Source: Okamejei kenojei
Taxonomy: Eukaryota
Assembly: GCA_035221665.1 (NCBI GenBank)
Contig: CM069151.1
Coordinates: forward strand, 29,450,001 to 29,514,000
DNA length: 64,000 nt
Direction: 5' to 3'
The notes under the pieces are model-generated. The model did not search any database. It saw only the letters and a list, made by a program, of their open reading frames with translations, and was not told the DNA's origin. Shown piece by piece: positions 3,242-55,089 of the stretch. A program made the translations under genes and the position numbers. Position 1 is the first letter of the stretch. Each line of letters starts with the position of its first letter.

Positions 3242-3292
3242 GTACATTCAGGGAGCTGCTTCACCCAAGGACATGCTGATTCTTGTAGATGT
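3242..3292 (+). CDS. CACNA2D1: Calcium channel alpha2delta-1 exon, 51 bp: (W)YIQGAASPKDMLILVD(V)
   Basis: Acceptor tttcatttcacag and donor gtaagt. The peptide matches the start of the alpha2delta-1 VWA domain (GAASPKDMLILVDV; alpha2delta-2 has GASSPKDMVIIVDV). Confidence 0.96.
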
Positions 3293-3296
3293 GTAA

Positions 3297-3521
<225 letters not shown>

Positions 3522-5097: not shown

Positions 5098-5315
5098 TGT
5101 GTCGGAAGGAACTGCAGACGCTGGTTTACACCGAAGATAGACACAAAGTCCTGTAGTAACTCAGCGGGACAGGCAGCATCTCTGGGGAGAACAAATGGGT
5201 GTGTCCAGAGGCTACGTCTGAAGAAGGGTCTCGACCCGAAATGTTGCCCATTCCTTCTATCCAGAGATGCTGCCTGTCCCGCTGAGTTACTCCTCCATTT
5301 TGTGTCTATCTTTGC
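5098..5315. mobile_element. Inverted-pair Penelope-derived module with hammerhead core and 13-bp TSD
   Basis: TGGATGACAACAA at 5085-5097 and 5316-5328. Arms are inverted. CTGAAGA-AGGGTCTCGACCC-GAAATGTT at 5218-5245 on +. Confidence 0.85.
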
Positions 5316-9097: not shown

Positions 9098-9445
9098 TAG
9101 ACAAAAGTGCCGGAGAAACTCAGCGGGTGCAGCAGCATCTAAGGAGCGAAGGAAATAGGCAACGTTTCGGGCCGAAACCTGGTTGAACCTGGTTGGGAAA
9201 CACAGCAGGTCGTTTTGGCATACACCCCAGAGTTTAAACAAATAACAATGTGCTGGAGAAACGCAGCCAGTCAGGCAGCAACTATTGGGGGAATGGACGG
9301 ATGATGTTTCGGGTCAGGGCACTTCTTTAGACTGAAGGGTCCAGACCTAAAACGTCATCTGTCCATTCCCTCCACAGTTGCTCCCTGTCCAACTGAGTTC
9401 CTCAAGCGGTCTGTTTTATTTCTTAAGATTCCAGCATCTTCCGTT
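9098..9445. mobile_element. Two degenerate Penelope-derived modules
   Basis: GGAGAAACTCAGCGGGTGCAGCAGCATC module at 9098-9180 and an inverted-pair module at 9245-9445. Confidence 0.7.
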
Positions 9446-15638: not shown

Positions 15639-16324
15639 AGTAAGTAAGTAAGTTTATTGGCCAAGTATTCACATACAAGGAATTTGCCTTGGTGCTCCGT
15701 CCACAAGTAACAACATGACATACAGTGACAGTTACGAATGACTCAGAAAACACTAAACATTAATAATAATAAAACATTAATGATAAAACACCATTGATCA
15801 AGCATGTGAACCGACAAAATACCAGATCAAAGGAAGGCTACAGTTTTTTGGCTGTTGAGTAGAGCAACTACTCGTGGATAAAAACTGTTTTTATGTCTGG
15901 CTGTGGCAGCTTTGACAGTCTGGAGTTGCCTTCCAGAGAGAAGTGATTCAAAGAGTTTGTGGCCAGGGTGAGAGGGGTCAGAGATGATCTTGCCCGCTCG
16001 CTTCCTGGCCCTTACAGTGTACAGTTCATCAATGGAGGGAAGTTTGCAGCCAATAACCTTCTCTGCTGATCAGACGATTCGCTGCAGCCTCCAGGTGTCG
16101 TGCTTGGTGGCTGAGCCAAACCAGACCATGATGGAGAAGGTGAGAACAGACTCAACGATGGGCATGTAGAATTGGACCATCATTGCCTGTGGCAGATTGT
16201 GCTTCCTCAGCTGCCGTAAGAAGTACATCCTCTGTTGTGCTTTTTTGACGTGGAGTCGATGGTAGCCCCCCACTTAAGGTCCTTGGAGATGATGGTTCCC
16301 AGGAACTTAAAAGACTCCACAGAT
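15639..16324 (-). mobile_element. Rex1/Babar-like LINE 3' fragment
   Basis: KKAQQRMYFLRQLRKHNLPQAMMVQFY...IVESVLTFSIMVWFG; AATAAA plus (CTTA)n tail. Confidence 0.88.
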
Positions 16325-16680
16325 GTTTGAGCCATTATTGTGATCTTTAGAATATCGAAGGAGTAATGATTAAAAATACTTTTTGTTTGCTCTCAAATAT
16401 TATGGCAGGATTAAATCTAAGGCTAGGTAAATATATTAAAGCACTGATTCTGCCAGCAGTCCAAAGAAATAATTACCTTCTTGATCCAGTAAGATTTAAA
16501 ATCATCAGCTTCTTCATTGCAATACTAAGACAAACACTAAAACTATTCCAGTAAAATTGCTTGGTTATCAGGGCCAGCTATAGTAGTGTGAATTTATTAT
16601 ATGAATCTCGTCTTGAATTTGTGCAGTGCTATTCATGACTTCTGGGCATCCCAACATATTTGCAACAAGCAAAAATAAGA

Positions 16681-17030
16681 GGGACAGCCAAGTGACGCAG
16701 CCAATGGAACCAGTTTCTCACAGCACCAGAGATCGACGTTCAATTCTGACCTTGGCTGCTGCCTGTGTGGAGCTTGTACATTCCCCCTGAGACCGTGAAG
16801 GTTTAGTCCAAGTCCTCTAGTTTCCTCCTACATCCCTAAAGACATGTGGGTTTGTAGTCTAGTTGTCCACTGCAAATTGTCCCTAATATGCAGATGAGTG
16901 GTAGAATTTGGGGTCGATTTGATGAGAATGAGGGGAGATTAAGAAATACGATTAATGTTGGATTATTGTAAAGGGGTGGTTCATGGTCGGCACGGACTCG
17001 GACGGGCTGAAGGGCCTGTTTCCGTGTGGT
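16681..17030 (+). mobile_element. Diverged HE1/V-SINE-like SINE
   Basis: tRNA-like head, core and GGGCTGAAGGGCCTGTTTCC tail. Confidence 0.75.
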
Positions 17031-18304
17031 ATTTCCCTTTGACTTTTTTTGAAGTGTGGTCACTGTTATAATAGAGGAATTGAAGTCAGTGGAAAGAGAC
17101 ATCAGGAGAGATGTGAATCAGACTTCCTCCAGCACTCTTTTGACAGCCTTGCACAGAAGCAAGAATCCTATGATTGTTAAAGCAGCAGAGGTTATCTCAC
17201 AGGAAGCACTCTTAAAGAAACAACATATTCTGATTCTACTTCTTCTCAAATTAAGTGACAAGTGGTTTAAATGGCCTGGAATTCACAAGCTGCCTATTAC
17301 GCACTGTGTGCAGGTCGTTGATGAGGGAGTGGGATAACATGGAACTAGTGTGCAAGTGTGATTGGTGGTTAATGTGGACTCGGTGGGCTGAAGAGCCTTT
17401 TTTTTTCTGCTATATCAGTAAACTAAATTAAACTAAACCAAACAAATAGTATGTTGACCTTAATTGCTTGAGGTTGAGGGTGTTAATTTAACACCCCAAA
17501 TTAAAGTAATCTTCCATCCCTGTGAATAAGACATCTTTGCCTTGTGCACTCATTATCAGTGTATCATTAAGATACAAACCACACCTCATCAGAAATATTG
17601 TGTTTTACACTGCATCTTACAATTTTTGGGAGTTCCCACAATTTCACCTTCAACCTCCATAATATTATTTGCTTTAAAGAGTGTTTCCATCTGTTTGATT
17701 CTCAGTCTTGGTCATACATGCCACGATTTAAGATACAGTCATTCAGACCAGCCATGTTATCCCTTCCCATTCAAGCCTTCATCTGTTGGTGTTGCATGCC
17801 ACAGCCCAGAAACTAGTCATTGCTCGGCTGCCTTGCCATTGTGGCTTGTTCTGCCAAGTATCTTTGCCCAGACGTGGTGGAGAACTGTAATTACACTTGA
17901 TTAACCACGGGGAAAGACTGCAAAGAATTGGTTTTGGTATTGCATACTCACTGAAAACTTTTAGCAAGAATTATCAACAATCTCAAGAGAAAGTTATTAT
18001 CCTTGTCATTTTGCAATATCTTCACAATTTCTTTGAAACACAGCACATATATGTGCAAAATATTGTTTATTGGTTAGATAGCGCATTAAACTATTTATAT
18101 GAGAAGACTTTTAGCTGTTGCACGATGTATGTGACAATGTGACAATGTTAAGGAGCAGACACACTGCATGACTCTACTGTGCAGTATAATCACAGTGTGA
18201 ACACACACAGGGATATGGTGAGAACAATATACCATGCCAGAGATCCCTGGGAACTGATGTCTGACAACAATTAACATCAGAACAGCAAACGGCTACACAA
18301 CAGA

Positions 18305-18497
18305 TTTTTTTAAAAGAAGGAACTGCAGATGCTGGAGAATCGAGGGTACACAAAAAGCTGGAGAAACTCAGCGGGTGCAGCAGCATCTAAGGAGCGAAGG
18401 AGTCTGAAGAAGGGTCTCGACCCGAAACGTCGCCTATCTCCTTCGCTCCTTAGATGCTGCTGCACCCGCTGAGTTTCTCCAGCTTTTTGTGTACCCC
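18305..18497. mobile_element. Inverted-pair Penelope-derived module with 15-bp TSD
   Basis: CGGCTACACAACAGA at 18290-18304 and 18498-18512. Perfect 59-bp inverted arms at 18344-18402 and 18438-18496. Confidence 0.92.
18404..18431 (+). ncRNA. Minimal type-I hammerhead ribozyme core (Penelope-type)
   Basis: CUGAAGA, then A and stem II GGGU-CUCG-ACCC, then GAAA with palindromic ACGU and a GUC cleavage triplet. Activity is untested. Confidence 0.75.
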
Positions 18498-19376
18498 CGG
18501 CTACACAACAGACATTGCTTGATCTTCACAGACACTTTGAGGTCACCATTTAGTGTCATCGCTTCACCTCTGAACGCAGCCTTCAGTCCAGAATCTATTA
18601 TCGTTAATCCCCCTCGTTGGCACATATTAACCTCGTCTTTCATTTGGAAACTTTGGCTATTTTCTAACAAGCTTCACTGATTTCAAACTTTTGAAGATTT
18701 TAATTCTGATCCACTTAAAGCTAACTTAAAAAATAAACCCTTTCTGCTTCAAAATTGCTTCTTTTATTACTAAGAATTTTATTTCCTGCCTTTCTATGGA
18801 TAATTTTTCCCTTTCCAGCCAAACATTGGTTTCAAAGTCATTTGAGCGAAATTCCTTGCTTCACATACAATTCTCCAGGTTCCCAAGCAGGCTCTTTGTG
18901 CTAACCTTTTCATTCTATCTCCTTGTTCTCAACAACAGTTTGAATCAATAGTTTAAAGCATGTCGTATACAGCTATTAAACCACAAAGATGGAAGTGTAA
19001 ACATTGGCTTGCTTTAAAAGATAGTATCAGAAGGATGTTTCTGTAAATGACATCTCCTTGGACATGTATCCCAAGGAAACACATGTATCAGGGCATATTT
19101 CATTGATCCTAAAATAGCTCTGAAAGTGCACACTGTTATCATTCATTAAGGATTAGGATGAAATGGCAGTGGATATGACTTTAGATGATATAATTTCAGG
19201 GGTATGTCCAATGAGGACTGACCAGGGGCACCAGCGCACTCTTCTCTAAACCTCCGGCCATGCGGTTCTGAATACATGCACGTTTACCCCCAATAATGTT
19301 GATAGGTATGTCCAGGTGAGACAGAGCAATGACTGTGACCACATTGGTACTGTGTCTTTACTCTTACTGGACTCAC

Positions 19377-19700
19377 AGTTAGTTTAGAGATACTGCATGG
19401 AAACGGCTTCTTCAGCCCACCCAGTCCGCGCCGACCATCGGTCACCCATTCACACTAGGTTTATGTTATCCTACTTTCTCATCCTGACCCTACACCCAAG
19501 GGGCAATTTACAAGGGCCAATTAACATACAAACCTGCGCATCTTTAGTACGTGGAAACAAAATGGAGCCCCTGGTGCAGTCACAGGGCGAACATGCAAAC
19601 TCCAGGGAGACATGCAAACTCAGACAGCATTGATGGTCAGGATCGAACCTGGGTCCCAGGTGCTGTGAGGCAGGGGCTCTACCAGCTGTGCCACTGTGCA
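19377..19700 (-). mobile_element. HE1/V-SINE-like SINE
   Basis: Reverse complement head GCACAGTGGCACAGCTGGTAGAGC, GGTTCGATCC and (CTAAA)n tail. Confidence 0.85.
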
Positions 19701-19819
19701 CTCTAAAGAAGAATCAATTCTCATTCCACAAAATGTCATCTTCTCCATTCTCTCTTCATAGGTTGATCTCTCATGCTTGGAAATAATCTATTGAACCTTT
19801 GCTTCACTGTCATTTTTTT

Positions 19820-20085
19820 TCAGTTCAGTTTAGTTTGTTGTCATGTCTACTGAGGTACAGTGAAACTTTTTGTTGCGTGCTAACCAGTCAGCAGAAATAC
19901 AATACATTATTCCAATCGATCCATTTACAGTGTATAGATACATCATAAGGGCATGCCGTTTAGTGCAAGGTAAAGCCAGCAAAGACCGATCAGGGAAAGT
20001 CCGAGGGTGATCAAAGCTCCAGCATTGCTCTCTGGTAGGGTGATTCAGTTGCCTGATAACAGCTGGGGAAAAAAACTGTCCCTGT
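19820..20085 (-). mobile_element. Rex1-like LINE 3' UTR fragment
   Basis: Same sequence as 30703-31005 (+) and 61085-61312; encodes SFFPAVIRQLN on the minus strand. Confidence 0.7.
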
Positions 20086-20089
20086 CATT

Positions 20090-20651
20090 ACCACCATCAC
20101 CATGGTTTGCCCCAACAGCTGCTGACGATCTTCTACCGCTGCACGACAGAGAGCATACTAACGTATGGCATCTCTGTGTGGTATCTCAGCTGCACGGAGG
20201 CGAAGAGGAGAGCTCTTCAGCGCGTTGTCCGCAGAGTGCAACAGATTATTGGGACACCGCTACCAGCCTTGAACCTACCACACACCGTGCCTCAGGAAGG
20301 CCGTCAGCATCCATAAAGACTCCTCTCACCCTTGTAATGGACTGTTCGAACTACTCCCTTCCGGCAGACGTTACAAGGCCTTCTACGTCCGCACCACCAG
20401 ACTCAGGAACCGCTTCATTCCCAGAGCTATAGTGGCTCTGAACCGGCCCTGCTGAGTACCCCCCCACCCCCATGGACTGTCTCCCCCGGCCTCGCACTTT
20501 AGTCTGTGTTGATTTTACTGGTCTAATGTTCATTTTTACAAACCTAGTTCTCAGGGTATTTAAACCTAAATTTTATTTGTCGATTAAGTTATGACATCAG
20601 ATGGAAGTTGCAAACCAAATCTCGTTGCACTTATGTGTAATGTCAATAAAA

Positions 20652-20689
<38 letters not shown>
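20090..20689 (+). mobile_element. Rex1-like LINE 3' fragment with (ATT)n tail
   Basis: PQQLLTIFYRCTTESILTYGISVWY...LQRVV; AATAAA followed by (ATT)n at 20652-20689. Confidence 0.85.
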
Positions 20690-20690
<1 letters not shown>

Positions 20691-21612
20691 GTTGGTGTAT
20701 TGTATGAAACTATAGGGGAACAGCAGAATACCTGAAGTTGGTATTTTGCCAATTCCCTACAACTTCAGACTTGCAAAACGGATAATTTGCAAGGAACTGA
20801 GAAGATTACAAACTGGCTAAGTTAATGGTCGTCTGCCATTCATTTTGAAACAACTTAAGGCAGTACTAACATTATAACTATAATTAAACAGCAAAATAGA
20901 CAAGGTTTAGGATCTGGGTGTCATTTGCTGACAGGACATTGAGTACGTAATTACAGCAGTTGCTTCAAAGTCAAAAAGATTGATCTTGAGAGCATAAGGA
21001 AGTGATATGTGCACTAATGTGGCATTAGTGAGCCTGCATGGAGAGACAAAAGGAGCTCCATCTGTTGTTGGGAAAAACAAGATTAAAGGATGATAATAAT
21101 TAGGAGGATCAATAAGATGAATGTAGCAAGGCTTTCTGTGTACAATCAGAACAAGATAACCAAGAATGCGATTAGTGTAGAAGCCCCAAGCTAAATGCCA
21201 CGTAGAAACTAACTTCTCCGTGCTCAGTGTTTTAAAATTGCAAAATAGGCTTCTAGCAAAGCAGATTCAATTCTAATAGTCACAAGGGAATTGTGATTCA
21301 GAAGGATAAATTACAGTCTGCGGTAATGCAGAAAATGAAAGCAAAATGTGAATACATTTTATTGTAAAATTGCAGTGGGCAATGGAATTTTGTTTTTATA
21401 TATATTATTCTACCACCATAAATATTACTGGACAATGAAAGGAAAGCAGCAATTTAACTTAACATGCTTGCAGATATCAAACAATGCATGGACGTCTTAA
21501 TGATTTCCAATGTTAATGCTGTTTATAGTGAGAATCTTATGCGATTGTTCATTTTTATATGTAACTGAAGTTTCCTAAACATCAGCTAGATCCTGATAAG
21601 ATAATCACACTG

Positions 21613-26495: not shown

Positions 26496-26798
26496 TTCCA
26501 TCCTCTAAGTGGTGAATAAATGTATAAAACATTGATACTCCGAACACGGCTTCTGTGTGGCACTGTTAGAGTACTCAACCCATGCCACTGTGCATTCTAT
26601 CTCTGGCTGTCTACCAATTTCCCAACAGTTTGCCGTTAATTTTACGAGGTTCAAATGTAACTAATATTTGGTTTGGAAGGATATTTTCAATGGCCTCTTG
26701 AAATCCATACAAATGACATCCATAGATACCTTCTGATGTATATTTACAAACCTGAAATGTTAATTCTATTGGTTTACGCAAATGCTGAATATTCTTAA

Positions 26799-27072
26799 GA
26801 TAGACATAAAATGCTGGAGTAACAGCTGGACAAGCAGCATCTCTGGGTATGAAGGAATGGGTGACGTTTCAGGTCGAGTTTTGATCTGTTACACTTCCTT
26901 ATCTCTGTAACTCCCTCTCCCCTAATGCTCAGTCTGAAGACGGGTTTCGAACCCGAAACATCACCCATTCCATCTATCCAGAGATGCTGCCTGTCCTGCT
27001 GAGTTATTCCAGCATTTTGTGTCTATCTTCAGTTTAAACCAGCATCTGCAGTTCCTTCCTACATATGAAGTC
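26799..27072. mobile_element. Inverted-pair Penelope-derived module with 16-bp TSD and near-intact hammerhead
   Basis: TGCTGAATATTCTTAA at 26783-26798 and 27073-27088. CTGAAGA-CGGGTTTCGAACCC-GAAACATC at 26934-26962. Confidence 0.88.
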
Positions 27073-28067: not shown

Positions 28068-30496
28068 GGCACTTCACCGCCAGATGTTCGAGATGTGGAG
28101 AGCAGGAGTTGGACAGGACTGCCACGTCTGAGCACCACGCAGAGTTGACCATGAGGCAGACGCCCCCTCCTCTCCCTTTCCCCGATGCCAGTGTACGGTC
28201 CATGCGGTGGATGGAGAACCCTTCAGGCTGGACCGCTGAGTCTGGGGAGCTGGGGGTGAGCCATGTCTCTGTGAAACAGAACACAGAGCATTCCCTCAGC
28301 CCCCTTTGATAAAGCAGTCTTGCCCTGAAGTCCTCCACTTTATTTTCAAGGGACTGTATTTTCAAGAGTCCGGGTCTCCTGCAGCTGGGGGAGATCGCTA
28401 AATTGCCAGCGCTTTCAGCTGCCCAAGCAGCCTGTCTGAAACGGCACAGATTACTGCCGTTTCCCTGATGCAGGTAAGTTGTTGAGAGTTGTAGATGAGC
28501 CTTTTATGTTCCGGAGCTCCGCAAAAGTCGCCGCAGGCAGGCGCCATCTTGAAGAGACTTGATCTTCTATCTTGTTTCCCAATCAGAAACCTTGGATGAA
28601 CTGTGAGATCCGCACTCTTCTGAAGACCAGACACCGGGCATTCATGTCTGATGATACAGTGGTCTACACAAAGTCCAGATACGACCAGATAAGGCCATCA
28701 AAAAGGCCAAAGGTGAGTTCTGCTCCAAACTGGAGGATGAGGCAGATGTTCGGCAGCTGTGGCGGGGACTGAATGCAATCACCTCCTACAAGGCGAAACC
28801 AGGAGGCAGCTCGGATGTCGGCGATACATCACTCCCTGATGAGCTCAATGCATTTTACGCACGCTTTGATAGGGAGAACACCGATGTGCCTTCCCGAGCC
28901 CCCATTCGCTGTGATGGTATTTCAGTCTCAGTCACAGAGGCCGACGTCAGGAAATCCTTCAGAGGGGTGAACCCTCGAAAAGCGTCTGGACCTGATGGCA
29001 TACCTGGTCATGTTCTAAAAAACCTGTGCGGACCAACTAGCTGGAGTTTTTACGGACATTTTCAACCTGTCACTTCTGAGGTCTGAGGTTCCCACCTGCC
29101 TCAAAAGGGCATCAATAATACCGGTGCCCAAGAAGAGCAAGGTGACGTGCCTCAATGACTATCGACCTGTGGCACTAACGCCTGTGGTGATGAAGTGCTT
29201 CGAGAGGTTGATTGAGAGGCAAATCAACTCCTACCTCGACAAAAACCTGGACCCACTGCAGTTCGCTTACCGCCACAACAGATCAACAGTGGACGCGATC
29301 TCGCTGGCCCTCCACTCCGCTCTGGACCACTTGGACAACAAAAATTCATATGTCAGGCTGTTATTCATTAACTACAGCTCGGCATTTAACACAATCATCC
29401 CCTCTAAGCTGGTTACCAAACTCGCAGAACTGGGTCTCTGCGCATCCCTCTGCAATTGGATCCTCGACTTCCTCCTTCACAGACCACAGTCTGTTCGTAT
29501 TGGTGGAAATGTGTCAGACTCGATAACAATCAGCACGGGAGCACCTCAAGGCTGCGTACTCAGCCCCCTGCTGTACTCACTCTATACTCATGACTGCGTA
29601 GCCGGTCATAGTGCGAACTCCATCATCAGGTTCACTGACGACACCACTGTTGTGGGACGTATCACTGATGGGGATGAGTCGGAGTACAGAAGAGAGATCG
29701 AGCGACTGTCCATATGGTGCCAGCACAATAACCTGGCCCTCAACACCAGCAAAACCAAGGAACTGATTGTGGACTTTGGAAGGAGTAGGATGGGGACCCA
29801 CAGTCCTGTTTATATCAAATGGTTGAAAGGGTCAAGAGTTCAAATTCCTGGGCGTGCACATCTGTGAAGATCTTTCCTGGTCGAGAACACAGATGCAATT
29901 ATTAAGAAAGCTCATCAGCGCCTCTACTTCCTGAGAAGATTACGGAGAGTCGATCTGTCAAGGAGGACTCTCTCTAACTTCTACAGGTGCACAGTAGAGA
30001 GCTTGCTGACTGGTTGCATCGTGGCTTGGTTCGGCAACTTGAGTGCCCTGGAGAGGAAAAGACTACAAAAGTAGTAAACACTGCCCAGTCCATCATCGGC
30101 TCTGACCTTCCTTCCATCGAGGGGATCTACCACAGTCGCTGCCTCAAAAAGGCTGGCAGCATCATCAAGGACCCACACCACCCTGGCCACTCACTCATCT
30201 CCCTGCTACCTTCGGGTAGAAGGTACAGGAGCCTGAGAACTGCAACGACCCGGTTCAGGAATAGCTACTTCCCCACAGCCATCAGGCTTTTAAACCTGGC
30301 TCGGACAAAACTCTGAACATTAATACCCCTCCATCTGTTATTTGCACTTTATTAATTTATTAATGAATGTGTGTATTTCCGTAAATAATTGTAGTCAATG
30401 CCTACTATGTTCCGTTGTGCTATGCAAAGAAAGAATTCCATTGTCCTGTCAGGGACACATGACAATAAACTCTTTTGACTGACTTTTGATCTTGAC
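28068..30496. mobile_element. Near-full-length Rex1-like LINE with inverted 5' segment
   Basis: Minus 28068-28560 holds the 5' end (CAAGATGGCGCC) and APE endonuclease (CFTETWL...GGGVC). Plus 28574-30316 holds RT ([26 protein letters not shown]) and the C-terminus. AATAAA plus (TTGAC)-type tail. Confidence 0.9.
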
Positions 30497-32548: not shown

Positions 32549-33857
32549 AACCATATAACCATATAACAATTACAGCACGGAAACAGGCCCTCTCGGCCCT
32601 TCCAGTCCGTGCCGACCATTTGTTTTCCCCTAGTCCCATCTACCTACACTCAGACCATACCCCTCCATTCCCTTCACGTCCATATACCTATCCACTTTAC
32701 TTTTAAATGTTAAAATCGATCCTGCCTTCACCACTTCTGCTGGAAGCTCATTCCACACAGCCACCACCCTCTGAGTAAAGAGGTTCCCCCTCATGTTACC
32801 CCTAAACTTCTGTCCCTTAATTCTCATGTCATGCCCTCTTGTTTGAATCTTCCCTACACTCAATGGGAAAAACGTATCCACGTCAACTCTGTCTATTCCT
32901 TTCATCATTTTAAAGACCTCTATCAAGTCCCCCCTTAACCTTCTGCGCTCCAAAGAATAAAGACCTAACTTGTTCAACCTTTCTCTGTAACATAGTTGCT
33001 GGAACCCCGGCAACATTCTAGTAAATCTCCTCTGTACTCTCTCTATTTTGTTGACATCTTTCCTATAATTAGGCGACCAAAATTGTACACCATACTCCAG
33101 AATTGGTCTTACCAATGCCTTGTACAATTTTAACATTACTTCCCTACTCCTATATTCAATGCTCTGATTTATAAAGGCCAGCACACCAAAGGCTTTCTTT
33201 ACCACCCTATCTACATGCGATTCCACCTTCAGGGAACTATGCACAGTTATTCCTAGATCCCTCTGTTCCACAGCATTCCTCAATTCCCTACCATTTACCA
33301 TGTACGTCCTATTTTGATTTGTCCTGCCAAGATGTAGCACTTCACACTTAACAGCATTAAACTCCATCTGCCATCTTTCAGCCCACTTTTCCAAATGGCC
33401 CAAATCTCTCTGTAGACTTTGAAAATCTACTTCGTTATCCACAACACCACCTATCTTAGTATCATCTGCATACTTACTTATCCAATTTTCCACCCCGTCA
33501 TCCAGATCATTGATGTACATGACAAACAACAGTGAACCCAACACAGATCCCTAAGACACCCCACTGGTCACCGGCTTCCAACCTGACAAACAGCCATCCA
33601 CCATTACTCTCTGACATCTCCCACTCAGCCATCGTTGAATCCATCTTGCTACTCCGCCATTAACACCCAAAGATTGAACCTTCTTAACCAACCTTCCATG
33701 GGGAACCTTGTCAAAGGCCTTACTGAAATCCATATAGACAACATCCACTGCTTTACCCTCATCAATTTCCCTAGTGACCGCTTCAAAAAATTCAAGAAGG
33801 TTTGTCAAACATGACCTTCCAGGCACAAATCCATGTTGACTGTTCCTGATCAGACAC
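32549..33857 (-). mobile_element. CR1 LINE, 5'-truncated, with RT domain
   Basis: SQHGFVPGRSCLTNL...[12 protein letters not shown]...GVS*GSVLG...YINDL...KYADD...WD*. One in-frame stop at 33551-33553. (ATGGTTAT)n tail. Confidence 0.95.
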
Positions 33858-35021: not shown

Positions 35022-38000
35022 TTATAAGTTGAGACGGTCAGGAGGTTTAATACATCTTGATGACCGTCGCAGAACTGGAGCTTCAGGAGGTAATGGCGTT
35101 TCAATAGCTGGTGGTACATATATTGCTTGGTCATCAACTTCACTCATTGTTATTTAGATTTACAATTTTAGAATTTCTTATAGAAGCTTCCATAGGGGAT
35201 GCTGGAAGTGTTGGAGGAAGTTCTCGATTAGTGTTATCAAGAAGTGACAGAGCTGATGGAGAAGACGGACATGGTGCAAGGTCATGAAGTGAGACAGTTG
35301 ACTGGCGTCCATCCTGATACTTGATAGTTGCATAAGATGGGTGGACATCAGTCATAGACATAGAAACATAGAAATTAGGTGCAGGAGTAGGCCATTCAGC
35401 CCTTCAAGCCTGCACCGCCATTCAATATGATCATGGCTGATCATCCAACTCAGTTTCCCGTACCTGCCTTCTCTCCATACCCTCTGATCCCCTTAGCCAC
35501 AAGGGCCACATCCAACTCACTCTTAAATATAGCCAATGAACTGGCCTCAACTACCCTCTGTGGCAGAGAGTTCCAGAGACTCACCACTCTCTGTGTGAAA
35601 AAAGTCTTTCTCATCTCGGTCTTAAAGGATTTCCCCCTTATCCTTAAGCTGTGACCCTTGTCCTGGACTTCCCCAACATCGGGAACAATCTTCCTGCATC
35701 TAGCCTGTCCAACCCCTTAAGAATTTTGTAAGTTTCTATAAGATCCCCTCTTAATCTCCTAAATTCCAGAGAGTATAAACCGAGTCTATCCAGTCTTTCT
35801 TCATAAGACAGTCCTGACATCCCAGGAATCAGTCTGGTGAACCTTCTCTGCACTCCCTCTATGGCAATAATGTCCTTCCTCAGATTTGGAGACCAAAACT
35901 GCACGCAATACTCCAGGTGTGGTCTCACCAAGACCCTGTACAACTGAAGTAGAACCTCCCTGCTCCTGTACTCAAATCCTTTTGCTATGAAAGCTAACAT
36001 ACCATTCGCTTTTTTCACTGCCTGCTGCACCTGCATGCCTACTTTCAATGACTGGTGTACCATGACACCCAGGTCTCGCTGCATCTCCCCTTTTCCTAAT
36101 CGGCCACCATTTAAATAATAGTCTGCTTTCCTGTTTTTGCCACCAAAGTGGATAACCTCACATTTATCCACATTATACTGCATCTGCCAAACATTTGCCC
36201 ACTCACCCAGCCTATCCAGTCACCTTGCAGTCTCCTAGCATCCTCCTCACAGCGAACACTGCCCCCCAGCTTAGTGTCATCCGCAAACTTGGAGATATTG
36301 CCTTCAATTCCCTCATCCAGATCATTAATATATATTGTAAATAGCTGGGGTCCCAGCACTGAGCCCTGCGGTACCCCACTAGTTACTGCCTGCCATTGTG
36401 AAAAGGACCCGTTTACTCCTACTCTTTGCTTCCTGTTTGCCAGCCAGTTCTCTATCCACATCAATACTGAACCCCTAATACCGTATGCTTTAAGGTATAC
36501 TATTCTCTTATGTGGGACCTTGTCGAAAGCCTTCTGGAAGTCCAGATATACCACATCACTGGTTCTCCCTTATCCACGCTACTAGTTACATCCTCGAAAA
36601 ATTCCACAAGGTTCGTCAGACATGATTTACCTTTTGTAAATCCATGCTGACTTTGTCCAATGATTTCACCACTTTCCAAATGTGCTGCTTCCCATCTTTA
36701 ATAACTGACTCTAGCAGTTTCCCCACTACCGATGTTAGACTAACTGGTCTGTAATTCCCCGTTTTCTCTCTCCCTCCCTTCTTAAAAAGAGGGGTTACAT
36801 TTGCTACCCGCCAATCCTCAGGAACTACTCCAGAATCTAAAGAGTTTTGAAAGATTATCACTAATACATCCACTATTTCCTGAGCTACTTCCTTAAGTAC
36901 TCTGGGATGCAGCCTATCTGGCCCTGGGGATTTATCGGCCTTTAATCTATTCAATTTACCCAACACCACTTCCCGACTGACCTGGATTTCACTCAATTCC
37001 TCCTTTGACCCACAGTCCCCTGCTATTTCAGGCAGATTATTTATGTCTTCCTTAGTGAAGACGGAACCAAAGTAGTTATTCAATTGGTCCGCCATATCCT
37101 TGTTCCCATGATCAACTCACCCGTTTCTGACTGCAAGGGACCTATATTTGTTTTAACTAACCTCTTTCTCTTCACATATCTATAAAAACTTTTGCAGTCA
37201 GTTTTTATGTTCCCTGCAGTTTTCTTTCATAATCTATTTTTCCTTTCCTAATTAAGCCCTTTGTCCTCCTCTGCTGGTCTCTGAATTTCTCCCAGTCCTC
37301 TGGTATGCTGCTTTTTCTGGCTACTTTGTACGCATCATCCTTTGCTTTGATACTATCCCTGATTTCCCTTGTTATCCACGGATGCACTACCTTCCCCGAT
37401 TTATTCTTTTGCCAAACTGGGATGAACAATTTTTGTAGTTCATCCATGCAGTCTTTAAATGTCTTCCATTGTATATCCACCGTCAACCCTTTTAGAATTA
37501 ATTGCCAGTCAATCTTGGCCAATTCACGTCAAGTCGGTTCAACTTCATCAACAAAAGGCTCGTTCTTATTTGATCGGACATAACGACGAAGCAACACGGT
37601 CCCTGGGCTTGTCAACCATGATGGCAGAGAAGTACCACTAGAAGAATGCCGTTTGAAGTTAAAGAACCGCTCATGTGGAGTAGGATTGGTAGCAGTTGAC
37701 AGTAGAGATCTGATGGAGTGTAATGCATCTGGTAGAACACATTCCCAATGCTGATCTGGTATGTCATCTGACTTTAAAGCCAGTTTCACTGCTTTCCAAA
37801 TGATTCCGTTATACCTCTCAACCTGACCATTTCCAATAGGATGATATGGTGTAGTTTTACTTGTTGCAATTCCTCTTTTAGAAAGGTAGTCCTTTAAATC
37901 TTTCGACATGAATGAGGTGCCCCTATCAGAATGTACGTAACTTGGAAATCCACAGAAAGAAAACAGCTGATCTAAACATTTGATAACCATAGCAGCTGAC

Positions 38001-40564
38001 ATATTCGGACAAGGAAAAGCAAATGGGAACCTCGAATATTCGTCAACTAAGGTAAGTATATAAACATTTCGAGAGGAGGATGGTAAAGGCCCTTTGAAGT
38101 CAATGCTCAAATTTTCCATAGGTTGAGTAGCTTTGATCAATCTTCCTTCTTCAGGACGGAAGAACCTTGGTTTTAATTCAGCACAGATTCTACATGAAGC
38201 ACACGTCATCTTCACATCTTCTGTAGAGAAAGGTAAGGTTTTGGAACGAACATAGTGTAATAAACGAGTGACTCCAGGATGACACATCCCATTGTGAAGA
38301 TCAGTGAGTGCAGAAGAATGAACAGAGGCACAAAATGCTCGAGTTAATGTATCCGGAGCAACATTATCCTTACCAGGGTGGTACTCAATTGAATAACTAT
38401 GTGCAGATAATTCAATCCTCCATTCATGAATTTTACTTTTCTTAATCTTCGTTCGCTTTCGATTTTCCAGCATAAAAGCTACTGAACGCTGATCTGTTAT
38501 CACAGTGAAGTGCTGGCGAGCAAGGAAATGACTCCATTTTCTCACTGCTTCAATAATTGCTGTAGCTTCCTTTTTGACAGATGGGTAGTGCAATTCACTA
38601 CCTTGGAGAGTACGAGACATGAAAGCCACTGGTCGTCCTCCTTGATTTAATGTTGCTGATAATGTTAAATCAGAGGCATCACATTCAACAACAAAGGGGA
38701 GATCCTCGTCAATGGCGTGTAATGTCGCAGATTCCAATTGTTTCTTTAAAGAAGTAAAAGCACCAATTGCTGTAGAGTCAAGCGGGAAAGATTTTGCTCT
38801 AATCAAAGGCTGAATTTTGTCAGAAAAATTTGGTATCCATTTTGCATAATATGCAAACATCCCAAGGACCCTTCGTAGAGAGTTTAATGTAACTGGAACA
38901 GGTATCTCTTGGAGTGGGCAGAGTCTTTCTGGATCAGGCTTGATTATATCATTTCCAACCCAATAACCAAGAATATTAATTGATGACACTGATGTTATTG
39001 ACTTAGCCTCATTTAATGTTAGATTGTTAGAATGTACAACATCTAAAAACCGTTGTACATTTTCATCATGTTCAGCTTGGTGTTTTCCTGCAATAGTTAT
39101 GTTATCAAGATAAGGGAAAGTATCTTTAAGGTTTTCCTGTTCAACAAGTTTGTCCATCTCTCTCTGAAAAACAGCCACGCCATTAGTTACACCAAAAGGA
39201 ACTCTGCAGTAGTGATAGATCATTTCCCATTTGCTTCAAAAGCAGTGTATTTCTTCTCTGATTCCTTCAAGGGAATTTGGTAGTAAGCACTTTTTAAGTC
39301 AAAAGTAGAGAATATCTTATACTTAGCTAATGTATTGATAATCTCTTCTATTCGAGGTAGTGGATATGCATCAAGGTCCGTGAACTGGTTTATAGTTTGA
39401 GAGTAATCAATGCAGAGTCTTTTCCTATGTCTCTCCAAGGGGTCCTTAACCACGCCAACTTGTGCCCTCCAAGGGGGAAGAGCTGGGTTCCTATCATCTT
39501 TCTAAAGTGTCTTGATAATTTGGCTTTTGAGTGATTTGAATAATGAGACATTGTCAGAGCCATCGAGATTTCCTTTATTTGAAGGAATTATGGTTAGATT
39601 GAGACGAGACAAACTTATAAAACTTCAACTTGTTCACTTATAAAACTTTCTGAACTGCCAGAATCAAGTAATACATTAAGTGTATGGCCATTAATGGATA
39701 CCATTGTAGCTGCATGAGACAAGCTCTGAGGAAATGCAGCTGTAATTGCACATAAAGAAGGCGTATACATGGCAGCAGTCACAATTTTTGTAGTTGCTTT
39801 GGACTTGCATTCTCTAGAATAATGTCCCTTCTTGCCACAACTATTACAAGTTGCCTCTCGAGCAGGGCATATCTCTCTCTTATGAATATTACCCCCGCAA
39901 AAGTAACAGTTCCTTTTTGAATAATTATATGCTGCAGCAAGGGCACCTTTATCTGTAGAAATTGTTTCGGTTTTCTCCATATTTGTACTTGGGTGAAATT
40001 CGTTTGTAGTAGTTGCAGCAGAATACACATTAGATGAGCCATAAGCATCTGAATTTTTCTGAGCCAAGTCCAAAGAGTAAGCTTGATTGTAAGCTGACTG
40101 TAAATCCAAGGTTTTGAGTTCTAATAGTCTCTGTCGTATTAAAGGCGATGCCAAACCATTGATAAAAGAGTCTCGAATAACTTCCTGTCGATATTGATCA
40201 GCCGTAACTGCTTTGAAGGCACAGTCTTTACTAAGTCTTTGAAGTTCTTGTAAAATTCATCAAGTTACTCACCAGGTTTTTGTTTCCGAGTAGCAAGGAG
40301 GTGTCGAGCGAGTATCACGTTGGGTGTCTTAACGAAGAGTCTGCTTAGTACATCAATAGCAGAATCATAAGTTGTACATTCCTCTATGTACTCGTATACA
40401 TCAGAAGAGACAAAGCTTATTAATGTCTTAAGCCTGTCTGGTGCACCGTTGCCACAATCCTCAAAGAAGTTATTTAGTATACGAAGCCAGTGCTTCCAAT
40501 TCTTTGCAGCAGCAGGTGAGTTGGGATCCAGATCCAAGCGTTGGGGTTTCAATAGTTTCTCCAT
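35022..40564 (-). pseudogene. Gypsy gag-pol, frameshifted and interrupted by CR1
   Basis: ORF pieces 40265-40564, 39615-40154, 39220-39453, 37529-39223 and 35140-35352. The final frame ends LRRSSRCIKPPDRLNL* with the stop at 35022-35024. Confidence 0.9.
35354..37531 (-). mobile_element. CR1 LINE (about 2.2 kb, 5'-truncated) nested in the Gypsy integrase
   Basis: [36 protein letters not shown] and KFADD motifs. (TTTCTATG)n tail. AGTC occurs at both junctions. Confidence 0.95.
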
Positions 40565-50240: not shown

Positions 50241-51753
50241 TAAATGTATTTTATTGGGATTTTATGTGATAGACCAACACAAAGTGGTGCATAATTGTGA
50301 AGTGGAAGGAAAATGACACATGGTTTTCAAATTTTTTTACAAGTAAAAAACTGAAAAGCGTGGCGTGCAAAAGTATTCAGCCCCCTTTACTCTGATACCC
50401 CTAAATAAAATCCAGTGCAACCAATTGCCTTCAGAAGTCACCTAATTAGTAAATAGAGTCCACTTGTGTGTAATCTAATCTCAGTATCAATCCAGCTGTT
50501 CTGTGAAGGCCTCAGAGGTTTGTTAGAGAACATTAGTGAACAAACAGCATCATGAAGCCCAAGGAACACACCAGACAGGTCAGGGATAAAGTTGTGGAGA
50601 AGTTTAAAGCAGGGTTAGGTTATAAAAAAAATATCCCAAGCTTTGAACATCTCACGGAGCACTGTTCAATCCATCATCTGAAAATGGAAAGAGTATGGCA
50701 CAACTGCAAACCGACCAAGACATGGCCGTCCACCTAAACTGACAGGCCGGGCAAGAAGAGCATTGTTCAGAGAAGCAGCCAAGAGATCCATGGTAACTCT
50801 GGAGGAGCTGCAGAGATCCACAGCTAAGGTGGGAGAATCTGTCCACAGGACAACTATTAGTCATGCACTCCACAAGAAGAAAACCATTGTTGAAACAAAG
50901 CCATAAGAAGTCCCATTTGCAGTTTGCCACAAGCCATGTGGGGGACACAGCAAACATGTGGAGGAAGGTGCTCTGGTCTGATGAGACCAAAATAGTTTTT
51001 GGCCTAAATGCAAAACGCTATGTGTGGCGGAAAACTAACACTGCATATCACCCTGAACACACCATCCCCACTGTGAAACATGGTGGTGGCAGCATCATGC
51101 TGCGGGGATGCTTTCTTCAGCAGGGACAGGAAGCTGGTCAGAGCAGATGGGAAGATGGACTGAGCCAAATACAGCAATCTTGGAAGAAAATCTGTTAGAG
51201 TCTGCAAAAGACTTGAGACTGGGGTGGAGGTTCACCTTCCAGCAGGACAACGACCAAAACATACAGCCAGAGGTACAATGGAATGGTTTAGATCAAAGCA
51301 TATTCATGTGTTAGAATGGCCCAGTCAAAGTCCAGACCTAAATCCAATTGAGAATCTCTGGCAAGACTTGAAAATTGCTGTTCACAGACGCTCTCCATCG
51401 AATCTGACTGAGCTTGAACTATTTTGCAAGAAGAATGGGCAAAAATGTCAGTCTCTAATGTGCAAAGCTGGTAGAGATATACCCCAAAAGACTTGCAGCT
51501 GTAATTGCAGCGAAAGGTGGTTCTACAAAGTATTGACTCAGGGGGGCTGAATACTTTTGCACGCCACACTTTTTAGTTCTTTATTTGTAATAAAATTTGG
51601 AAACCATATATCATTTTCCTTCCACTTCACAATTATGCACCACTTTGTGTTGGTCTATCACATAAAATCCTAATAAAATACATTTACATTTGTGTTGTAA
51701 CGTGACAAAATGTGGAAATGTTCAAAAGGTATGAAAACTATTGCTAGCCATTG
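50241..51753 (+). mobile_element. Tc1-like (IR-DR) DNA transposon, decayed, left TIR truncated
   Basis: Inverted repeats at 50241-50385 and 51541-51753. Transposase fragments MKPKEHT..., [20 protein letters not shown] and [17 protein letters not shown] follows the right end. Confidence 0.95.
50552..51536 (+). pseudogene. Tc1 DDE transposase with multiple frameshifts
   Basis: ORF fragments 50552-50737, 50863-51198, 51108-51314 and 51224-51550 together carry the HTH region and the D, D and E motifs. Confidence 0.9.
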
Positions 51754-54006: not shown

Positions 54007-55089
54007 GAGGTAGACACAAATTGCTGGACAGGCAGCATCTCTGGAGGGAAGGAATGGGTGATGTTTTGGGTCGAGACCCTTCTTCAGACTGATGTTAGGG
54101 GAATGGGCGGGACAGATATAGAATATAGTTGGAGACAGTAAGACTGGTGGGAGAACTGGGAAGGTGGAGAGGATGGAGAGAGAAGGAAAGCAAGAGATAC
54201 TTGAAGTTAGAGAAGTCAATGTTCATACCGCTGGGGAGTAAGCTACTCAAGCAAAATATGAGGTGCTGTTCCTCTAATTTGCACTGGGCCTCACTCTGAC
54301 AGTGGAGGAGGCACAGGACAGAAATGTCAGATTAGGAATGGGAGGGGGAGTTAAAGTGCTGAGCAACCAGGAGATTAGGTAGGTTAAGGTGGACTGAGCG
54401 GAGGTGTTCGGCGAAACGATCGCCGAGCCTGCGCCTGGTCTCGCCGATATACACCTGGAACAGCAGATACAGTAGATGAGGTTGGAGGAGGTGCAAGTGA
54501 ACCTCTGCCTCACCTGAAAAGACTGTTGGGGCCCTTGGATAGAGTGGAGGGTGGAGGTAAAGTGGCAGGTGTTGCATCTCCTGCGCTTGCAGGAGAAAGT
54601 ACCTGGAGAGGGGTGGTTTGGGTGGGAAGGGGCAAGTAAACCAGGGAGTTGCAGAGGGAATGTTCTCTGCGGAAAGGGGTGAAGATGGGAAGATGTGGCC
54701 AGTAGTGGGATCCCCTTGGAGATGGTGAAAATGTTGGAGGATTATCTGCTGTGTGCGACGGCTGATGGGGTGGAAGGTGAGGACAAGGGGGACTCTGTCC
54801 TTGTTACGAATGGGGGGAGGGGGAGTAAGAGCGGAGCTGCGGGATATCGAGGAGATCCAAGTGAGAGCCTCATCTCCAAAGGAATAGGGGAACCCTGGTT
54901 CCCTAAAGAATGAGAACATCTCCGATGACCTGGTATGAAAAATCTCATCCTGGGAGCAGATGCGGCGTAGATGGAGAAATTGGGAGTAGGAGATAGAGCC
55001 TTTACAGGAGGTAGGGTGGGAAGAAGTGTGGTCTACTGGCCACATCTTCCCATCTTTGATTTAAACCAGCATCTGCAGTTCTTTCCTAC
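54007..55089 (-). mobile_element. Penelope-like element 3' part (RT thumb + GIY-YIG + pLTR with hammerhead) with short inverted 5' piece
   Basis: SSHP..CK.SI.YSQFL.LRRICS; FTCTSSNLIYCI.C; YIGETRRRLGDRFAEHL. TSD-like ACAACATRTCATYGA at 53992-54006 and 55090-55104. Inverted pLTR end at about 55051-55089. Confidence 0.92.

Follow-up and report, generated by a model that had tools for sequence, protein, structure and literature searches.

The window analysed here, a stretch of 64,000 nucleotides from the skate Okamejei kenojei (GenBank assembly GCA_035221665.1, contig CM069151.1, positions 29,450,001 to 29,514,000 of the forward strand), carries part of the CACNA2D1 gene. When the skate protein P0002 was placed by tblastn, residues ~266-298 fell at about 3396-3494 and residue 299 onward from 57469, both on the plus strand, which gives a host intron of ~54 kb with approximate boundaries at 3495 and 57468. 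Upstream of the window, at a distance of 20 kb, lies an exon with a match to alpha-2/delta-1; its closest named relatives are skate proteins (91%). Two CACNA2D1 exons occupy 3243-3494, and the intron between them spans only about 100 bp before the ~54-kb intron begins. This exon placement agrees with an initial annotation of the DNA, which had put a hairpin unit within a CACNA2D1 intron on the sense strand; the unit lies ~15 kb from the nearest exon. Other repeats are plentiful in the window. Two frames of 568 and 213 amino acids on the minus strand at 37529-40256 are presumably the RT/RNase H/integrase and gag/protease of an LTR retrotransposon, broken frames at 50797-51550 (plus strand) resemble what we take to be a Tc1/mariner transposase, and the segments 1515-1976, 28655-29867, 32630-33550 and 35644-37116 are, we assume, CR1/L2-like and Rex-like LINE reverse-transcriptase fragments. 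An inverted pair of another repeat (99 nt, 71% complementary, 17296-17394 and 19409-19507, 2 kb apart) brackets the hairpin.

The hairpin unit is an insertion of 193 bp flanked by identical 15-bp direct repeats at 18290-18304 and 18498-18512 (plus strand). Its two arms pair perfectly over 59 bp (18344-18402 with 18438-18496) around a loop of 35 nt, as initially annotated, and a mismatch stops the helix from extending both inward and outward. The fold has a z-score of -16.7, and 0 of 200 shuffled sequences were equally stable. The segment 18305-18343, which had been passed over, is an inverted 39-nt 'tail' on the minus strand with a short A run at its minus-strand end; it matches the sequence that follows the element body in a long copy described below (L181). 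Measured against that copy, the left arm (minus strand) is an inverted pseudo-LTR (pLTR) body without a core, 5′-truncated 6 nt past the ribozyme cut site. A second pLTR copy, in forward orientation and without a tail, spans 18401-18497 on the plus strand, starts 3 nt before C3 of the ribozyme core at a position that is a hot spot for 5′ ends in the family, and supplies the right arm. The two copies meet head to head and overlap by 2 nt of microhomology at 18401-18402, bases for which both can account. The possibility that C18438 is a post-insertion correction that perfected the hairpin was rejected; this base is a subfamily allele.

Most of the loop is a minimal type-I hammerhead at 18404-18431 on the plus strand, with the features given for such motifs in PMC4209133. 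It consists of CUGAAGA (C3 to A9, 18404-18410), an extra A at 18411, a 4-bp stem II (18412-18415 with 18420-18423) closed by a 4-nt loop, GAAA (18424-18427) and CGUC (18428-18431), the last comprising a palindromic, loop-less stem III and C17. The core is thus intact and its predicted cleavage site, 18431|18432 as read from this layout, is that given initially, although the extra A18411 had been left out. The conserved core, the extra base after A9, the G10.1-C11.1 pair and the palindromic 15.2-16.2 of minimal hammerheads are all present; helix I, for which 4-5 bp would be expected, consists both natively and here of a U-G and a G-C pair alone. A helix I of 2 bp is reported for a Drosophila virilis variant (PMC4209133). 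Covariance models, which the initial annotation had proposed as a check, gave no support: Rfam returned no hammerhead match at E values up to 10 across 16000-21000, where only generic hairpin models scored, below their cut-offs. This silence is expected given that the motif has no stem III loop.

The insertion is young, as had been proposed. In a related organism (organism B), whose flanks differ by 3.3%, one contig in each of two runs joins 18289 directly to 18498, so that the site is empty with a single copy of the 15-bp repeat. Therefore, the repeats are a true target-site duplication (TSD). Runs of one sample of the same species as the window (S1) carry the filled junction. In run X5, from a second sample of that species (S2), a right-flank contig instead enters 18327-18346 rather than the right arm; it skips 18347-18501 between 7-nt repeats at 18347 and 18502 and leaves only the inverted tail. 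Two further organisms (C and D) yielded no contig over the right flank, which is uninformative. Such contigs are evidence of presence, not absence, and the X5 form is a possible palindrome-driven deletion allele or a library artefact of polymerase skipping.

Parent element and genomic abundance

It is virtually certain that the hairpin insert derives from a Penelope-like element (PLE). Compared with L181, it reads as two truncated copies of the pLTR end of such an element, in head-to-head arrangement. Genome copies were counted by exact patterns (the DNA similarity search skips very common words). A 38-nt core with 10 nt of flank has 25,144 exact copies in the genome and a 34-nt piece of the arm body has 45,915, and the reversed control of each has 0. 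The window holds about 20 occurrences of this element sequence, and the 264 kb around it hold 87.

A GIY-YIG-like remnant in the window led us to the long copy L181 (contig C31, minus strand), which belongs to the young subfamily and contains an 812-aa stop-to-stop frame (L181:4832-7270). This frame matches RVT_1 just under the Pfam cut-off (E = 1.8e-6) and contains DKG and YIGET motifs; Pfam reported no GIY-YIG family in it, and that motif was read from the translation. Some 230 nt of 3′ UTR follow the frame, and then the same subfamily of core (with two substitutions), body and tail. The initial assignment of the hammerhead to a PLE is thereby tied to a frame with reverse transcriptase and GIY-YIG endonuclease. 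L181 itself is probably not an intact source, as parts of its frame look shifted relative to other copies. Among 30 core-bearing loci read, 10 have the end of this ORF directly upstream. Two long copies, when extended, turned out to be 5′-truncated, and none of the young copies recovered was full-length with both pLTRs.

In three of the seven long young copies scanned, a CX4CxxC linker, a CCHH motif and YIGET lie in one frame. A CX2-5CxxC linker before GIY-YIG, together with CCHH, is described as the signature of Neptune and Nematis elements (PMC8557442), and Neptune and Poseidon are given as vertebrate PLE groups (bioRxiv 10.64898/2026.07.22.740005). The parent would thus appear to be a Neptune-type PLE, a class assignment that rests on the linker motif and on the occurrence of this group in vertebrates.

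The same CACNA2D1 intron holds an older, longer insertion of the same superfamily (54023-55089, minus strand), comprising a broken frame with the end of the reverse transcriptase and GIY-YIG, a pLTR with a decayed core, and an inverted tail at its 5′ end. Its GIY-YIG part has 150 scored relatives in the genome. Pfam found 0 families in the two proteins from the window's broken PLE frames. An inverted piece of the internal ORF follows the inverted tail, and the insertion is flanked by near-identical ~12-bp repeats. This inverted ORF piece suggests a template switch.

The hammerhead resembles the minimal motifs of metazoan PLEs (PMC4209133) in its type-I core, the extra base between positions 9 and 10.1, the G10.1-C11.1 pair and the palindromic, loop-less stem III, and also in that most motifs are single and dispersed; that paper notes close dual motifs on opposite strands as well. 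It differs in having a stem II of 4 bp and a native stem I of about 2 bp. Moreover, the skate core copies are highly uniform, whereas the portions of PMC4209133 used here report such uniformity for Drosophila virilis only. Cartilaginous fishes are not named in those main-text portions, and the supplements of the cited papers may hold motifs from them. Our literature search, which did not extend to Repbase or Dfam, found no paper that deals directly with a PLE family in skates or sharks, with a two-primer reading of such insertions or with a pile-up of their 5′ ends.

Head-to-head pairs and 5′ ends of young copies

The initial annotation had treated the inversion as a special feature of this hairpin. 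A survey of 863 kb (264 kb surrounding the window, together with 60 stretches of ten kb each, taken at fixed positions along contigs C1-C25) argues otherwise. It contains 281 arms and 72 pairs of neighbouring arms within 200 bp of each other, 47 of which are head to head, 20 in tandem and 5 tail to tail. Head-to-head arrangement is thus a common product of the family; its junctions vary widely. Extrapolation to the genome gives about 150,000 head-to-head pairs of all ages. The window itself has three older head-to-head units (5101-5312, 9245-9407 and 26794-27062) from related subfamilies, all with decayed cores, and two of the three show a clear TSD of 13-16 bp and one tail.

Young copies were studied in the first 100 exact young arms on contig C1 (its first 5.5 Mb, loci L151-L276). 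In this set, all 14 head-to-head pairs with two exact arms have exactly one tail, which is on the shorter arm in seven, on the longer in three, and in four on an arm of about equal length. A wider set of 44 distinct young pairs, which includes loci selected by their junction and the window itself, has one tail in 38 of 44 and a TSD of at least 9 bp in 38 of 44 (median 15). Perfect stems in this set reach 97 bp. Across 90 young tails, an A run follows in nine, and no shared sequence extends past about 3 nt beyond the tail.

The 5′ ends of the 100 young arms were determined by extending each arm in comparison with L181, to within a few bases, and are numbered from the first base of the ribozyme. 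They cluster at its edge: 53 fall at -6 to +6, 27 more than 40 nt upstream (three of these reach the edge of the locus), seven at -40 to -7 and nine at +7 to +25. Only three lie near the cut site at +28 (+26 to +32), and one lies beyond. Genome-wide, the native 11 nt upstream continue exactly in 12,533 of the 25,144 core copies. We therefore rejected the idea that ribozyme cleavage sets the 5′ ends. The pile-up implies that the templates are not ribozyme-cut as a rule and that they have a preferred 5′ end at the ribozyme edge.

A pyrimidine tract ending in CAG lies upstream of the core, and the native sequence at the pile-up presumably fits the initiator consensus. CAG and the pyrimidine tract could mark either a transcription start or a 3′ splice site. 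In the PLE of D. virilis, an intron is reported to end at helix I (PMC4209133). No shared upstream exon was seen at the core among the loci examined. Copies that start at -3 are preceded by G in 992 cases, A in 787 and T in 455, where base composition predicts 609, 813 and 813, respectively. However, a single extra base following the TSD turned up at just three of 30 loci with G, one of 30 with A and one of 30 with T (10, 9 and 14 loci, respectively, were ambiguous). The excess of G therefore hints at a cap, and hence at a transcription start, without establishing either.

Probable integration at two nicks

We favour priming at two nicks, one in each strand, as the probable origin of the head-to-head units. 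The GIY-YIG endonuclease of the element would make a staggered cut, 15 bp apart, and its reverse transcriptase would extend both nicked strands at the target. The arm with the tail would be primed from a downstream start site and the tail-less arm from another lying ~39 nt upstream of it; the two would usually copy one RNA, or RNAs of one source. At the present locus, one cDNA would have reached the preferred 5′ end of the RNA just before the ribozyme. The other would have ended 6 nt beyond the cut site before being joined to the first over the 2-nt microhomology.

An anole PLE studied in vitro nicks and extends both strands and uses two internal start sites that bound the tail; the same source still calls PLE integration beyond first-strand synthesis unvalidated (PMC11167929). 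One tail per pair, a TSD of ~15 bp and junction microhomology are the expected residue of two-strand priming at those two start sites. That the two arms come mostly from one source follows from the alleles they carry: at one polymorphic site 38, and at another 41, of the 44 young pairs have matching arms, where shuffled pairings average 23 and 25; 0 of 10,000 shuffles reached the observed concordance. Even so, six and three of the 44 pairs are discordant at these sites, and thus a single RNA cannot explain all pairs and two templates can be used.

High concordance would also fit a single molecule copied back on itself. From palindromes seen at inverted junctions, PMC3846280 proposed such an origin for head-to-head Penelope repeats, namely self-priming (fold-back) with an antisense template; the junction loops of 6 of the 44 pairs are indeed very short (1-18 nt). 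We consider this route unlikely, though clearly the most serious competitor. Copies made by fold-back should be identical, yet the discordant pairs differ. Moreover, the 35-nt loop at the present locus is element sequence found in one arm only, and two nicks, together with the pair of start sites that PMC11167929 measured in vitro, account directly for the single tail and the ~15-bp TSD.

A much less probable alternative is that the whole hairpin unit is a non-autonomous mini-element, similar to a MITE or a retrozyme, that is copied as such. The exact hairpin junction does have 33 matches in the genome. Thirty of these were read: one is unrelated, and the other 29, the window included, are family units with differing flanks. 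In all 29 family loci, the tail sits on the truncated arm, a stronger bias than among the 14 pairs on C1 and one that two-nick priming does not explain. However, 33 matches amount to about 0.1% of the core-bearing copies in a family whose junctions vary widely. The exact junction is also carried by at least five different allele backgrounds, one of them an older subfamily, and in most cases the two arms agree; a single master would need repeated homogenisation to produce this pattern. Tandem arrays of the retrozyme kind were not found. Non-LTR retrozymes (PMC7229834; bioRxiv 10.64898/2026.07.22.740005) are likewise short, non-coding, PLE-derived carriers of a type-I hammerhead in vertebrate genomes, but they are described as head-to-tail tandems with at least two ribozymes, whereas the skate unit is head to head and has one core and a TSD. 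We therefore did not classify the unit as a retrozyme.

The skate unit also resembles the insertions left by endonuclease-bearing (EN+) PLEs as described in PMC3846280 and PMC8557442. These share the inverted head-to-head pLTR, a tail of 30-40 bp at one end (39 nt in the skate), a TSD, junction overlap and heavy 5′ truncation. Unlike in those units, truncation leaves both skate arms at ~100 nt, too short to include the ORF, and lets them fold into a short hairpin; the TSD is about 15 bp rather than the 8-10 bp of the rotifer examples, and near-identical young copies number in the tens of thousands. The anole Poseidon element PAc (PMC11167929) similarly has two ends, with and without a tail, downstream of its hammerhead, and its ORF starts inside the ribozyme. 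Unlike PAc, the skate parent has the CX2-5CxxC linker of Neptune and Nematis, which Penelope and Poseidon are described as lacking.

More tentatively, and with somewhat less than even confidence, we propose that the family as a whole preserves intermediates of PLE integration across the genome. Priming at both nicks would use sense RNA, from the two start sites on either side of the tail. Half of the copies would extend to one fixed 5′ end of the RNA, a transcription start within the pLTR that lies 1-4 nt ahead of the hammerhead, and the ribozyme would not have cut the templates. If true, this model would unify the tails, the head-to-head hairpins, the solo copies of ~100-135 bp and the ~15-bp TSD. 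It would also displace antisense self-priming, and the first hammerhead would be transcribed with almost no stem I.

The hairpin in RNA and its significance

We regard the unit as a recent 193-bp head-to-head pLTR insertion whose hairpin is likely an unselected by-product of integration and whose ribozyme is predicted to be inactive in the pre-mRNA. A perfect intronic stem of 59 bp is nonetheless the kind of substrate that ADARs edit, as with inverted Alu pairs, and the hairpin might matter as double-stranded RNA that tunes CACNA2D1 expression through editing or through processing by Drosha and Dicer. Penelope copies of bdelloids are reported to yield small RNAs (PMC3846280). We rate a tuning role as very improbable. 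The extrapolated head-to-head pairs are exceedingly numerous, three more lie in the window, the nearest exon is distant, and the insertion is missing from a relative and seems to have been lost from another sample. The word share in RNA-type runs was 0.06 (assembled contigs). Incidental editing of the hairpin is plausible, but a selected role is not supported; we are highly confident that the hairpin has no selected role in the host, and any RNA effect would be common to very many loci.

The initial annotation had further proposed that the inversion may clamp the core with a long closing helix. Folding does not support this idea. G18402 pairs with C18438 (probability 0.97) rather than with C18433, which places the helix 5 nt out of register, leaves a 5-nt bulge and makes the helix compete with stem I. 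In nearest-neighbour calculations, which ignore tertiary contacts in the core, the two stem-I pairs (U-G and G-C) have an ensemble probability of 0.001 and cost 2.0-2.4 kcal/mol over the open loop, and a misfold of 18405-18407 with 18430-18432 (0.6-0.7) hides the core and the cut triplet. The long helix supplies no stem III, which is still loop-less. A computed homodimer, an extended duplex, is 10 kcal/mol lower in energy than two monomers (-269.3 versus 2 x -129.6 kcal/mol); in it the stem-II palindromes pair with each other and the two active sites are not formed.

Published assays point the same way: single minimal motifs showed no detectable cleavage and dimers little (PMC4209133), and eight of nine Xenopus dimer constructs were inactive (bioRxiv 10.64898/2026.07.22.740005). 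The anole PLE ribozyme cleaves only with its protein, and cleavage is not needed for insertion (PMC11167929); by analogy, protein-assisted cleavage of the skate core is possible. The 863-kb survey found 56 core-like motifs, of which 33 are intact. The CACNA2D1 intron has no other intact core on the sense strand, and the nearest is ~35 kb or more upstream. We consider it very likely that no meaningful ribozyme cleavage occurs in the CACNA2D1 pre-mRNA. The reading in which the long helix instead holds the core in an active form that cleaves the nascent intron, whether by itself, in a dimer or with the aid of the PLE protein, is the least probable of all: the core is intact and on the sense strand, the lower-energy dimer could join two cores in RNA annealed in vitro and the anole precedent exists, but beyond the register, the misfold, the loop-less stem III, the missing second core and the inactive constructs, a double hammerhead needs an intermolecular stem I, which fast 59-bp fold-back would presumably oppose, and young arms that begin near the cut site are scarce.

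The hairpin architecture is not specific to this locus; it is a routine product of the family and has already been described for PLEs. Three of the first 100 young arms belong to a pair with the core in the loop, which scales, over 45,915 arms, to roughly a thousand or more young hairpins of this kind. As a single locus, the hairpin therefore matters little and shows no sign of selection. The family, however, comprises tens of thousands of near-identical recent insertions, and their junctions make PLE integration readable, through the single tail of each pair, the ~15-bp TSD, and a sharp pile-up of 5′ ends at the ribozyme edge with no such pile-up at the cut site. This burst also seeds introns with many perfect stems of 40-97 bp, which are a potential bulk source of double-stranded RNA and of palindrome-driven deletions.
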